Shown in pieces: positions 24,431-29,038 of a stretch of 64,000 bases of DNA. Source of the DNA: an uncultured Methanoregulaceae archaeon (GTDB lineage Archaea; Halobacteriota; Methanomicrobia; Methanomicrobiales; Methanospirillaceae); assembly GCA_963717525.1 (NCBI GenBank), contig OY970343.1, forward strand, positions 544,001-608,000, in the 5' to 3' direction. A program made the translations under genes and the position numbers. The notes under the pieces are model-generated. The model had not been told where the DNA came from and did not search any database. It saw nothing but the letters and a program-made list of their open reading frames with translations. Position 1 is the stretch's first letter. Each line of letters starts with the position of its first letter.

Positions 24431-25251
24431 TTCTTCACCATGCACTCTATCAAAGCGTCGGTGAGCTCCAGCCCGCGTTCGCAGTAGGTGCCGAGATGCC
24501 GGGTGTCGCGGGAGAAGAATTCGGCAAACGCTGCAGGATCACCGCCCTGGACGATCTCCGAGAGTTCCCCGGCTGCCGACCGGCACGCAGCGAGCACCCC
24601 GGGCACAAACGGGTTTTCCTGGAGTATATCGGCATAGAGCGCCGGGTCCTGAGAGAGAGCCGGCCTACGAGCGAGAGCTCGATCTGGTACACCGGGCTCA
24701 TGAACGGTCCGGTCTTCCCTATGTCAATGCCCAGCCGTGCGGATGGAGTCAGCCATGCATATCGTGACAAAGTGGGTGAGCCCCTGGACGATGGCCATCA
24801 TCCGGTCGTGCTCCTCCGGTGTTGCGATCGTGCAGACGGCCCCCTCGTGCAGGAAGATTCCCCTGAGGTCGGAAAGCATCGTCCCGGTTATCCGCGCCGG
24901 GCACATGATGATGGTCTGGCGTGCAATGGACGAGAGCGTCGGCCCGAACATCGGGTGGAGCCCGATGACCTGAGCCTCCGACTTAAGCATCGCCGCGACG
25001 GGGGCTACCTTGAGCGAGGTAAAATCGCAGAGAACCTGGTCTTTTCCGAGGAGCGGTGCGATCTCACCGATGACCCGCACGGTGTCGCGGATGGGCACAG
25101 AGACAATGACGAGATCGCAGGTCTCTGCGATGTCAGCATTCGTTACCGCTGTCGAACGCCCCGAGACTATCATCTCGTAGCCCGCCCGCTCAAAGACCGG
25201 GGCGAAGAGCTTTCCCATCTTCCCGGTGCCGCCGATGATGCCTGCCTTCAT
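24427..25251 (-). CDS. tyrA: Prephenate dehydrogenase (frameshifts in the 3' third)
   Basis: GIIGGTGKMG, DFTSLK, HPMFGP and EHDRMMAIVQGLTH motifs; TGA overlaps the pheA ATG. Confidence 0.88.
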
Positions 25252-25253
25252 GT

Positions 25254-26241
25254 TCACTTCTCGCGTATCGTCTCTTTGACCGGCATGCCAAAGTGCCTGC
25301 CGCCTTCGAGCGCACAGCCGAGGATCGTATGTCCCGGCGCAAGGTTCACGACCGAGATCGCACTCCCGTCGGGAGCCACGAGCCGGATCGTCTCTGCGTT
25401 CTGGAGGATCAGGCTCGCCTTGGCCCCTCCTCCCTCTGCCTCGACAAGGAGCAGTGGCCGGCGCTCGATTTTCGTCCTGCCTACAATAGCGGAACGGGCG
25501 GTGCCCCGGTGGTCGGCCACCAGCACCTGCCCCCCGATGGAGAGATCGGAGAGGTACGCGGTCTTCCCGTCAGGCATCAGGATGTATGCATGCACCGCGC
25601 CGGCGTTCACCCGGAACGGGCGGGGCGCGACGTACGGGTTTTCGAGCGTTTCGGCATGCACGAGGAGCATGGCAGACGAGGTGTTCCCCATCAGCATGCC
25701 GTCGCCATCGGCAAGCATCGAGCAGGTGTCCACGCAGACCCGGTCGCCCATGCCTACGGGCTGGATCTTTGTGACCGTGAAGGGTATGAGCTGCACGCTT
25801 CCGGAGGCGTTTTTTATGAGCGCCGCGACCGCCTTTACGACTGCGGGGTCTGTGGTTTTGAGGAGGATCCCGAACACGCCTTTTTCAAGAACGTGGAGAG
25901 CGAGCTCCGCCTCGTGAACGTTCTTTACGGCCGCGACGATCTTGTCCGACTGCGCGACCAGGTTTTCGAGCGGGATGACCGTCCAGTCGCTTGTCGTGAC
26001 GATGACGATCCGGTTCTTACCCTTCTGTGCCGCCTCGTTCTCGCTTGCCTTGTCGGTGATCGTGCACTCGATCACGTCTTTGCCCGGGAATGCGGTCGCC
26101 GTCAGGTGCGACGGTTGTTATCCGCCCGAGTCTTTTAACATCCCCGGCCCGGTCAGCCACGACCGCATCCGCACCGCTCTCGATGGCGGTCGTCACGATC
26201 TCCTTGTTCCACGGCCGGGCATCCACCCAGAACTGCTTCAT
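25254..26241 (-). CDS. aroB': 3-dehydroquinate synthase II, archaeal (frameshift near 26085)
   Basis: DWTVIPLENL, GDRVCVDTC, RPFRVNAGAVHAY and LQNAETIRL motifs. Confidence 0.92.
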
Positions 26242-27034: not shown

Positions 27035-27826
27035 TTATCCATTGAGAATCTTCAGCGCCTCTTCGACGCTCTTGTTCTGGTGCACGATACACGCTGCTGC
27101 CCGGACGAACTTGTCCGGCATCCGGTGCTGGAAGGCGTTCCGGCCGATCGAGATCCCGGCCGCACCGCCCGCCATCGCGCCTTCAATCAGTTCCAATGTT
27201 GTGCGGTCATCCGTCTTTGAACCTCCGGCGACCACGACCGGCACCGGGCAGCCCCGGGTCACTTCGCGGAAGGACTCGGGATCCCCGGTGTACACGGTTT
27301 TCACGATATCGGCCCCGAGCTCGGCTGCCACCCGTGCGGCGAGCTTCACCTGCTCGACATCGTTCTCCTTCTTGATATCTTTGCCCCGCGGGTACATCAT
27401 CGCGAGGAGCGGCATCCCCCATTCCATGCACTCGACCGCCACGTGCCCGAGGTCCTGGAGCATCCGCGCCTCGGACCCGGCCCCGATATTGACGTGCATC
27501 GAGACCGCGTCGGCGCCCATCTTCAGCGCGTTTGTCACCGAGTTTACGAGCACCTTCTCGTTCGGGTCCGGCCCAAGCGAGGTGGATGCCGACAGGTGCA
27601 GGATGAGCCCGATGTCGCGGCCACCCTGCCGGTGGCCGAAGAGGGCGAGACCCACGTGGCCGATCACCGCGTTTGCCCCGCCGTCCGCGACCAGGTTCAC
27701 GGTCTGGCCCATGTCGATCAGGCCGGGGATCGGCCCGTTCGACACCCCGTGATCCATCGGTACGATGACGGTCTTTTTCGTATTACGGTTCATGATTCTT
27801 TCCAGACGAATTTCTTTACCTCTCAT
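27035..27826 (-). CDS. aroA': DhnA-type class I aldolase, ADH synthase family, paralog 1
   Basis: PMDHG, HLSAST, YPRG, ADIVKT and GRNAFQ motifs; first gene of the operon, with GGAG SD. Confidence 0.87.
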
Positions 27827-27876
27827 AACAACAACTCCCCCTCCAGCCCTGATACAACAACCAGACGTGAAGGGAA

Positions 27877-28041
27877 TTACCGGTACCGGGGATAATACCC
27901 GAAACCGAAAAAGCCAAAAAAGCCAGAAACGCGATAGCCGATGCTTCTCGCGTTTACGCTTTCAGAAACGGCATTACTGATGCTAAAGATGGGTGCTGCG
28001 CTTTCAGAGATAAAGACATTCACGAGGGAAAAAACCCTCAC
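27877..28041 (-). CDS. Candidate Phe/Tyr-rich leader peptide of the aro operon (54 aa from GTG; may start at ATG 28066 with a +1 shift)
   Basis: [54 protein letters not shown]; stop is 50 nt before the aroA' ATG. Confidence 0.7.
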
Positions 28042-28088
28042 GGGCGCTGTTGCACTCTTCCTGCATGATTATTGGTTGGAGCCGGGGG

Positions 28089-28095
28089 TATATAA
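28089..28095 (-). promoter_or_regulatory. Putative TATA box of the leader/aro operon transcript
   Basis: TTATATA on the minus strand, ending 22 nt before ATG 28066. Confidence 0.65.
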
Positions 28096-28261
28096 TTGTG
28101 CGTGCTAAGGAGTAGCATGGTGGGGGGAACCGGCCCATTTTATGGGCCAATCTCTCTTTTTCATATGAATCTCAAAATTTTCATTAGAATGTGAATAGCA
28201 TTATTAAATTATAATATTATCAAGTAAAATTTTGATTCAAAATCAAAACCAATTAAACAGA

Positions 28262-29038
28262 TTATAGATCTTTCCTTTTACTCCAAAGAAATTTGGCCAA
28301 TTGAATTCTTCCTTTATTTTTTGAATAATCCGACATATATATCGGTACCATTCGTATCATCTTTTCAAGTATTCTATAGAAAAATTTTTCAGAAATCGAT
28401 TTGATTATTAATAAAAATAAAAATCCCTTGAAAGTTTCATCTGGCCTAGAACATATTGAAGAATCCCAAATAAACAATCCAATTATTGTATCCTTTTTCT
28501 TATCAAAACCCAAGTCACTTAAATCTTCAACATTGATAAATAAATTTTCCATCATTTTTTTTAATAATTCTGCATTTAAAGACAGATAATACAGAATTAA
28601 ATTAAAAACAGCTGCAATAATACAGAAAATTGCTGAAGTATATGACATCAATTCAGAGAGATGAAAATAAAATGATCCTATGGAAATAATGAATAATGCA
28701 GGAATTATGCCTAAAGTAAATATTGCATCAAAATAACCAAAAATACTGCCAGAAATTTCTATGGATTTTCTCAGTCTAATTAAATGAGGTAATGATTTTT
28801 TTTGGGGATCAAATTTTTTTATATAATCTCCGCATTCAAAAATTTTACGATAATAGTCGTAATTCGAAGGAGATTTGTATTGCTGTTTTAGAGATTGTGG
28901 GGCTTTTAAAACAATGTTGGAGTATAATCGAATAAAATCTGCTCTAACGTTTAATTTCTCTTCAATTCGAAAAATAAAATTACATAGGTATCGATTTAGA
29001 CGATTAGTACAACTATCACAGTTGGTGTTATAGTCCAT
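28262..29038 (-). CDS. AT-rich orphan membrane protein (2 predicted TM helices)
   Basis: Intact 258-aa ORF in a markedly AT-rich stretch. Confidence 0.65.
   Translation of the reverse strand: MDYNTNCDSCTNRLNRYLCNFIFRIEEKLNVRADFIRLYSNIVLKAPQSLKQQYKSPSNYDYYRKIFECGDYIKKFDPQKKSLPHLIRLRKSIEISGSIFGYFDAIFTLGIIPALFIISIGSFYFHLSELMSYTSAIFCIIAAVFNLILYYLSLNAELLKKMMENLFINVEDLSDLGFDKKKDTIIGLFIWDSSICSRPDETFKGFLFLLIIKSISEKFFYRILEKMIRMVPIYMSDYSKNKGRIQLAKFLWSKRKDL

Follow-up and report, generated by a model that had tools for sequence, protein, structure and literature searches.

How might an archaeal operon for aromatic amino acid biosynthesis be controlled by ribosomes translating a short reading frame in its own leader? 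The question arises in the window, a 64,000-nucleotide stretch of contig OY970343.1 from an uncultured Methanoregulaceae archaeon, where the aroA' gene for ADH synthase opens a same-strand run that continues with a second aroA', aroB', prephenate dehydrogenase and prephenate dehydratase. The first-pass annotation had proposed a leader whose Phe codons, when ribosomes stall on them, select between two competing hairpins. Our analysis supports a ribosome-sensing leader for this operon, along with a conserved hairpin just after the leader stop that in this genome conceals the aroA' Shine–Dalgarno sequence (SD). The leader is real, but the switch originally proposed for it is wrong in detail, and the key part is a proposed frame gate located 60–130 nt upstream of the interval to which that proposal was confined. 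The nearest named relatives by protein identity (95–97%) are Methanoregula or Methanoregulaceae records. The gene and promoter features are as follows.

27035..27826, minus strand: aroA' (ADH synthase), scoring above the TIGR01949 cut-off
28089..28095, minus strand: TATA box, 29 nt before the AUG at 28066
28103..28117, no strand assigned: palindrome TGCTA-N5-TAGCA, candidate transcription-factor site upstream of and adjacent to the promoter

Orthologous loci have a TATA-like box mostly 29–34 nt ahead of the AUG. Because the spacing is 29 nt here and similar in the orthologues, the transcript is probably leaderless or nearly so, with a start site inferred from the TATA–AUG distance. The palindrome is a candidate operator for some regulator and is not needed for the leader model. 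Its pattern has a single copy in the genome and is present in 57 of 205 leaders, at −50 to −53 in those of the Methanoregula type. In Methanoregula it precedes the TATA box, and in f2 g15 and g22 (L260–L272) it falls between that box and the AUG; in other orders, longer palindromes that appear related by eye are found between the TATA box and the ADH-synthase genes, where the leader is seemingly absent. A TGTACA beside the TATA-like box of the trp operon (G000:C1:1809920-1809945) resembles the TRP box of TrpY.

Three further observations concern the neighborhood. Relative to three relatives (L002, L004 and L005), aroB' carries one extra G at 26093-26085 that splits the gene, probably an assembly error. 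The prephenate dehydrogenase gene (24450-25257) stops after 177 amino acids with its continuation in another frame, which is probably a second indel. Just upstream of the leader, 28262-29038 contains an AT-rich 258-aa open reading frame without an NCBIfam match.

For comparison, 217 upstream regions were collected: 137 from 151 genomes of the order, taken as the best full-length match per genome with G043 contributing two, and 80 named ones. Some genomes occur in both sets and exact duplicates were dropped before folding, giving sample sizes of 187–199; the loci are related and partly duplicated, so the counts given below are not independent. Six regions are cut short, 182 have the double cassette described below in frame with an AUG and 29 do not. 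Choosing the AUG automatically from TATA scores gave noisy results (161 of 212 at +1), and the cassette pattern together with independent stop picking was used instead. Positions in cassette 1 are fixed by the search pattern, whereas those in cassette 2 were left free. The coding features of the leader are listed here.

28004..28066, minus strand: frame-A uORF of 20 codons, opening at the AUG at 28066
28028..28041, minus strand: cassette 1, with SD-like GUGAGG, P-site UUU (28033-28031) and A-site Phe codon UUC (28030-28028)
28010..28023, minus strand: cassette 2, an 18-nt repeat of cassette 1, with GUGA, P-site CUU (28015-28013) and A-site Tyr codon UAU (28012-28010)
27877..28011, minus strand: frame-B (+1) open reading frame, stop UAA at 27879-27877, 62 aa if read via a shift at cassette 2
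27880..27924, minus strand: aromatic control-codon run of five Phe and three Tyr codons, coinciding with the U-tracts

The U-tracts are the Phe codons themselves, just as the first-pass annotation had it, but a conserved AUG out of frame with these control codons had been missed. Frame A, opened by that AUG, is 20 codons long, does not share the frame of the aromatic run and ends 1–3 codons past the Tyr codon in 168 of 182 leaders. When the aromatic stop is picked independently of the cassettes, it falls in the +1 frame in 178 of the 182 leaders that have them; two of the four exceptions are broken by indels (L138 and L140), and in the other two (L114 and L172) a different stop was picked while the +1 frame is open. 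Leaders that lack the cassettes have their aromatic reading frame in frame 0 with the AUG in 29 of 29 cases (L118 has two in-frame stops), and there is no +1 leader without the cassette 1 pattern. The +1 relation is kept across 27 different spacer lengths; as a control, 49 stop-to-aroA' lengths are spread 14/16/19 over the three phases. The spacer is open in frame B only, with further stops in frame A in 158 and in frame C in 179 of 180 leaders, and the final aromatic codon lies 1–3 codons ahead of the stop in 188 of 194.

Two trivial sources of the split frame were considered and set aside. Assembly error is rejected because 178 of 182 leaders share the split, although nearby indels seem to be present, and slippage by the polymerase would be unlikely with just 3–5 consecutive U in cassette 2. 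Near the leader end, positions 27888-27886 read CGG (Arg) in this genome and UGG (Trp) in close relatives; Trp sensing may have been lost here through this change.

The codons at the two cassettes are constrained. At cassette 1, where the pattern fixes YUU-UUY, the P-site codon is UUU in 157 and CUU in 25 of the 182 leaders and the A-site codon is UUC in 145 and UUU in 37. At cassette 2, where both are free, the A-site codon specifies Tyr in all 182 (UAU 155, UAC 27) and the P-site codon is YUU in 180, with CGU in the remaining 2. The A-site codons change only synonymously in frame A (UUC/UUU and UAU/UAC), in each case altering the frame-B residue. The P-site codons vary only between CUU and UUU, and their third base is constant although frame A alone would permit it to change. 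The SD-like element is more variable: an exact GGUGA is found at cassette 1 in 88 of 182 leaders, 4 nt from the shift site, and Methanoregula has GAGG at 2 nt. A spacing of 4 nt is within the range used for initiation in this genome (4–7 nt in 78 of 160) and is not the compressed position of RF2. The first shift site follows the AUG by 11 codons in 67 leaders and by 5 in 115; a third, degenerate 18-nt unit (28059-28042) stands ahead of cassette 1 in Methanoregula-type leaders.

A pattern search located one double cassette apiece in 57 of the 68 genomes of the order and none in 333 other genomes of the phylum, and a reversed-pattern control gave no matches. The double cassette is single-copy in this genome, with no second occurrence elsewhere. 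No such leader was seen before the trp operon of this genome, and a crude, noisy scan of the genome for other leaders with amino-acid runs gave none tied to a biosynthetic operon among the matches listed. In other orders, a reading of the region ahead of the best ADH-synthase match per genome showed no comparable leader in 30 of 35 genomes. The genome encodes tRNA-Phe(GAA) and tRNA-Leu(GAG); ARAGORN did not find tRNA-Tyr in this assembly, which is 87% complete.

How the in-frame leaders arose was followed on a tree built from aroA' proteins, with 46 rows for split leaders, 22 for in-frame leaders and 6 for the outgroup, chosen from 182, 29 and 30, respectively. The in-frame state requires six changes on this tree, at least five of which are forced by well-supported branches. 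In pairwise alignments, the bases absent from in-frame leaders map to the slippery cassettes in L015, L019, L046, L121, L132, L100 and L111, and L019 encodes C-L-I, the product predicted for a shift at cassette 2. We also note that f4 g18 and f6 g20 (L283–L287 and L292–L296), which belong to different families, have a common leader end, FWFRQ*, the same hairpin and neighboring aroA' branches; the nesting of g20 with g18 on the tree suggests horizontal transfer of the locus.

Three helices had been drawn for the RNA between the control codons and aroA'. All can be drawn on the minus-strand transcript at the positions below, where every sequence named for them is located.

27927..27955, minus strand: helix 1 (27955-27948 with 27934-27927), which forms here and is not conserved across the order
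27872..27900, minus strand: helix 2 of the earlier proposal, not expected to form
27838..27875, minus strand: helix 3, the post-stop hairpin (27875-27868 with 27845-27838, plus an inner stem), whose 3′ arm contains most of the aroA' SD at 27844-27836

The 171-nt stretch 27990-27820 folds better than its shuffles (z −3.35, with 1 of 200 as good). Helix 1 had been described as a hairpin followed closely by U-tracts, and it does form here (pair probabilities 0.75–1.0; region z −3.1). Among 49 distinct Methanoregula-type leaders, retained from 57 after duplicates and long spacers were dropped, 259 of 392 cells pair. It is not general, however: the order-wide median z for this region is −0.56 (n = 164, 30 below −2), and helix 1 is unsupported as a conserved terminator-like element across the order.

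Helix 3 is confirmed, with a probability of 0.66, and covers 7 of the 9 nt of the best SD match to the 16S 3′ end read from the genome, GGAUCACCUCCU. It is followed by AGUUGUUGUU and the aroA' AUG, without a terminator-type U-run after the leader stop. Column-wise pair counts for this helix (277 of 392) are blurred by register shifts, and per-sequence folds were therefore used. A post-stop stem of at least 4 pairs begins −3 to +8 nt from the stop end in 192 of 194 leaders, with sequences that differ between genera. Folding of this region is moderately above that of shuffles (median z −1.8; 83 of 194 below −2). Order-wide, 112 of 194 leaders have half or more of the SD in paired bases, and lineages that leave the SD uncovered have retained the hairpin. 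Rfam gave no match on the leader and one sub-threshold match (E 0.18) upstream of it.

Helix 2 is central to the idea that stalling at the Phe codons exposes the SD by exchanging helix 3 for helix 2. The two helices do have bases in common, as that scheme requires, and this part of it stands. Helix 2 itself contains a U:U mismatch (27897:27875), has a free energy of −8.0 kcal/mol and a probability of about 3e-9, and is not conserved; a competing hairpin (27911-27898 with 27890-27877, −12.9 kcal/mol) beats it and is compatible with helix 3 (−18.1 kcal/mol). Nor do the real sequences outdo codon-shuffled ones: in 187 leaders, pairing between the final 15 codons and the 5′ arm of helix 3 has a median of −2.2 kcal/mol, compared with −2.7 kcal/mol after codon shuffling, and ranks in the top 2 of 21 in just 12 of 187.

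Ribosome positions speak to the same point. With a footprint mask whose length follows the 15–16 nt given for Haloferax (PMC7261190), the aroA' start, which costs 13.4 kcal/mol to open in the unmasked RNA, costs 11.7–14.6 kcal/mol with the A site anywhere from −16 to −3, a range that takes in all the Phe codons as well as the Tyr-Tyr pair. The cost drops only at the last Tyr codon (7.5 kcal/mol at −2), at −1 (4.4 kcal/mol) and at the stop (5.3 kcal/mol) with a 16-nt mask, and a 13-nt mask opens the start only at −1 and at the stop. A stall at any Phe codon would thus leave the SD closed, contrary to the original suggestion, and we regard the switch between helices 2 and 3 as scarcely credible.

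Across the order, the start is blocked (at least 8 kcal/mol) in 117 of 198 leaders. A drop of at least 3 kcal/mol is seen in 75 of these at the last aromatic codon, in 75 at the stop and in 15 at an earlier aromatic codon, while in 42 of the 117 the mask gives no 3-kcal drop. In 66 of 198 leaders, including many from Methanoregula, the start is nearly free (below 6 kcal/mol). Occlusion of the SD is thus not a universal output, and since these leaders keep the hairpin as well, it must act otherwise there, for example by pausing or ending transcription.

The model that we favor builds on the anatomy of the leader, its frame relation, its codon constraints and the position of its hairpin. Translation would begin at the 5′-terminal AUG, in frame A. 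As long as Phe and Tyr are in good supply, ribosomes would pass both cassettes and terminate one codon beyond the Tyr codon, with about 125 nt still separating them from helix 3; helix 3 would stay over the aroA' SD and the operon would be off. A shortage of Phe-tRNA or Tyr-tRNA would leave UUC or UAU unread in the A site, and the tRNA paired with UUU or CUU in the P site could move one base on and re-pair with UUU, carrying the ribosome into frame B; the SD-like element 2–4 nt upstream may assist this shift. Shifted ribosomes would then reach the aromatic run and slow there and, judging from the folds, at the last aromatic codon or the stop they would unwind the 5′ arm of helix 3 and free the SD. 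In the off state, loss of coupled translation might secondarily expose U-rich RNA to termination. In-frame leaders would retain the second stage only.

The chemistry of the shift has precedent, as CUU_U and, in a minority, UUU_U form the +1 site of RF2, and a slow A-site codon is described as driving +1 shifts (PMC5009743). We consider entry into frame B by frameshifting likely and, given such entry, helix 3 over the SD is likewise the probable main output in this genome. The combined proposal, that starvation-driven +1 frameshifting gates ribosome access to helix 3 as a two-stage sensor of Phe and Tyr, has in our estimate an even chance of being correct. The broader statement for Methanomicrobiales, in which tandem hungry-codon +1 sites form a dedicated sensor of Phe (first site) and Tyr (second site) that gates an aromatic-biosynthesis leader peptide and has been hard-wired by deletion at least five times, seems to us somewhat favored by the comparative data. 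Points against the gate include the variable SD-like element with its initiation-like spacing and the UUU kept at both shift sites, which could instead be conserved because frame B needs Phe there. Frameshifting in a Phe leader can also be incidental, as in pheL (PMC3082878), but there the shift occurs at the leader end and the frame it leads into serves nothing further, whereas in this leader that frame contains the control codons. The RNA data for orthologue L225 comprise 24 runs, all of them in the form of contigs; in the four compared with the locus, one contig bridges the cassette and the aroA' start, but the library may contain DNA and we give it no weight.

Could the same frame gate work on transcription instead of on the SD? 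In such a scheme, the U-rich run and the post-stop hairpin, by pausing the polymerase, would lead to FttA/aCPSF1-dependent or intrinsic termination when no ribosome follows, and a shifted, stalled ribosome would cover the U-tracts. The hairpin is indeed strongest where the SD is uncovered (f4 g12, g16 and g18 and f6 g20; median z −3.5 to −5.5), the SD being paired in 0 of 20 leaders of these groups and uncovered also in L003 and L005, and FttA is reported to favor U-rich nascent RNA (PMC13681488). However, the 3′ arm is the SD itself in most genera (at least half paired in 112 of 194), and U-richness follows from the Phe and Tyr codons, so that a mainly transcriptional output appears unlikely to us, if still a serious competitor. 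A different objection does away with the shift altogether: frame B might start by itself at the GUG or AUG of cassette 1 (here the frame-B GUG at 28041), leaving frame A as a separate regulatory uORF. This triplet is GUG or AUG in 180 of 180 leaders (GUG 148, AUG 32), the equivalent triplet of cassette 2 varies to GGG and CUG, and a start at 28041 would give an ordinary 54-aa reading frame. Such a start would lie just 7 nt (115 leaders) or 25 nt (65 leaders) behind the 5′ AUG, however, and in the 7-nt form an SD would not fit; starvation at the frame-A Phe codon would place a ribosome over the GUG and give regulation of the wrong sign; the GUG belongs both to the SD-like GGUGA and to a local hairpin, which offers another cause for its conservation; and the in-frame lineages use the AUG. 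We find a separate start doubtful on these grounds.

A further candidate for what frame A controls is a long-range helix between cassette 2 (28021-28004) and aroA' codons 1–6 (27825-27808), which has pair probabilities near 1 in the full-leader fold. The duplex is strong here (−21.1 kcal/mol, z −4.4), and 412 of 490 cells pair in the 49 Methanoregula-type leaders, but no two-sided change is seen, 41 of the 49 show a mismatch at the invariant A of the Tyr codon, z is below −2 in only 40 of 156 leaders order-wide and the open +1 frame is left unexplained. Stalling in frame A that acts through this helix is an improbable basis for the leader, although the helix may serve as an extra lock in this genus. 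Among these readings, the starvation-driven frameshift gate acting on helix 3 is the one that we carry forward.

If the gate is real, archaea would gain both a ribosome-mediated leader-peptide attenuator and a cellular regulatory +1 frameshift, and hungry-codon frameshifting would have a purposeful, productive use; a 2016 review states that no starvation-specific trans-frame proteins were known (PMC5009743). Our search of the open-access literature found no description of this leader, no archaeal leader-peptide attenuator and no cellular regulatory +1 frameshift in archaea. Archaeal aro and trp genes are described as being under the control of TrpY and Tar, DNA-binding proteins that respond to aromatic amino acids (PMC6737238). 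Archaeal frameshifting is described for fucA1, a magnesium chelatase and haloviral tail genes (PMC8211752, PMC5009743); the cellular cases named there are −1 shifts in protein genes, whereas the shift proposed here is +1 and in a leader. At 60 nt, the cassette is small enough for a reporter, for which the natural in-frame variants are built-in controls. It also offers a direct test of internal SD pairing by elongating archaeal ribosomes and of the coupling between translation and termination.

Two comparisons help to place the leader among attenuators. Short leader reading frames rich in the amino acids of the pathway precede biosynthetic operons in the trpL and hisL systems. The same arrangement is described for pheL (PMC3082878), and the leader here is similarly enriched in the pathway amino acids. 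It departs from the classical form in that we found no alternative antiterminator and no pair of mutually exclusive antiterminator and terminator structures between which a stall at control codons could select, no terminator hairpin with a U-run follows the leader stop, the control codons stand at the very end beside a single hairpin and most leaders are split over two frames. The mycobacterial polycysteine attenuators (bioRxiv 10.1101/834739) have a leaderless short reading frame with control codons ahead of an operon and resemble the 29 in-frame leaders, but they are bacterial and respond to cysteine, and the accessible part of that report describes no frame change.

Two frameshifting systems offer further parallels. 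As in ermC and cat leaders, a hairpin covers the downstream SD (7 of 9 nt paired here; 112 of 194 leaders order-wide), and a leader ribosome overlaps its 5′ arm once it stands on the final aromatic codon or the stop but not before. In ketolide-induced frameshifting at ermCL–ermC (PMC5009743), a shift in the leader reading frame likewise sends ribosomes into a structured spacer, which is unfolded for downstream initiation. There the trigger is a drug and the shift is a side route of a stalling attenuator, whereas here the proposed trigger is a lack of the pathway's own products, acting through hungry codons; the present leader, unlike ermCL–ermC as described in that source, is archaeal, precedes an aromatic operon and has two conserved +1 sites. 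With prfB (RF2) it has in common the CUU_U/UUU_U site, found in 180 of 182 leaders at the free cassette 2 and in 182 of 182 at the pattern-fixed cassette 1, as well as a slow A site, a candidate SD-like element upstream and decay of the site where the shift is not used (PMC5009743). It differs from prfB in having a Phe or Tyr sense codon rather than the UGA stop codon in the A site, two tandem sites, a leader peptide as product and an SD-like element that is variable and mostly 4 nt away. The output is thus like that of ermCL frameshift induction and the shift sites are like that of prfB, but the leader is a member of neither class.
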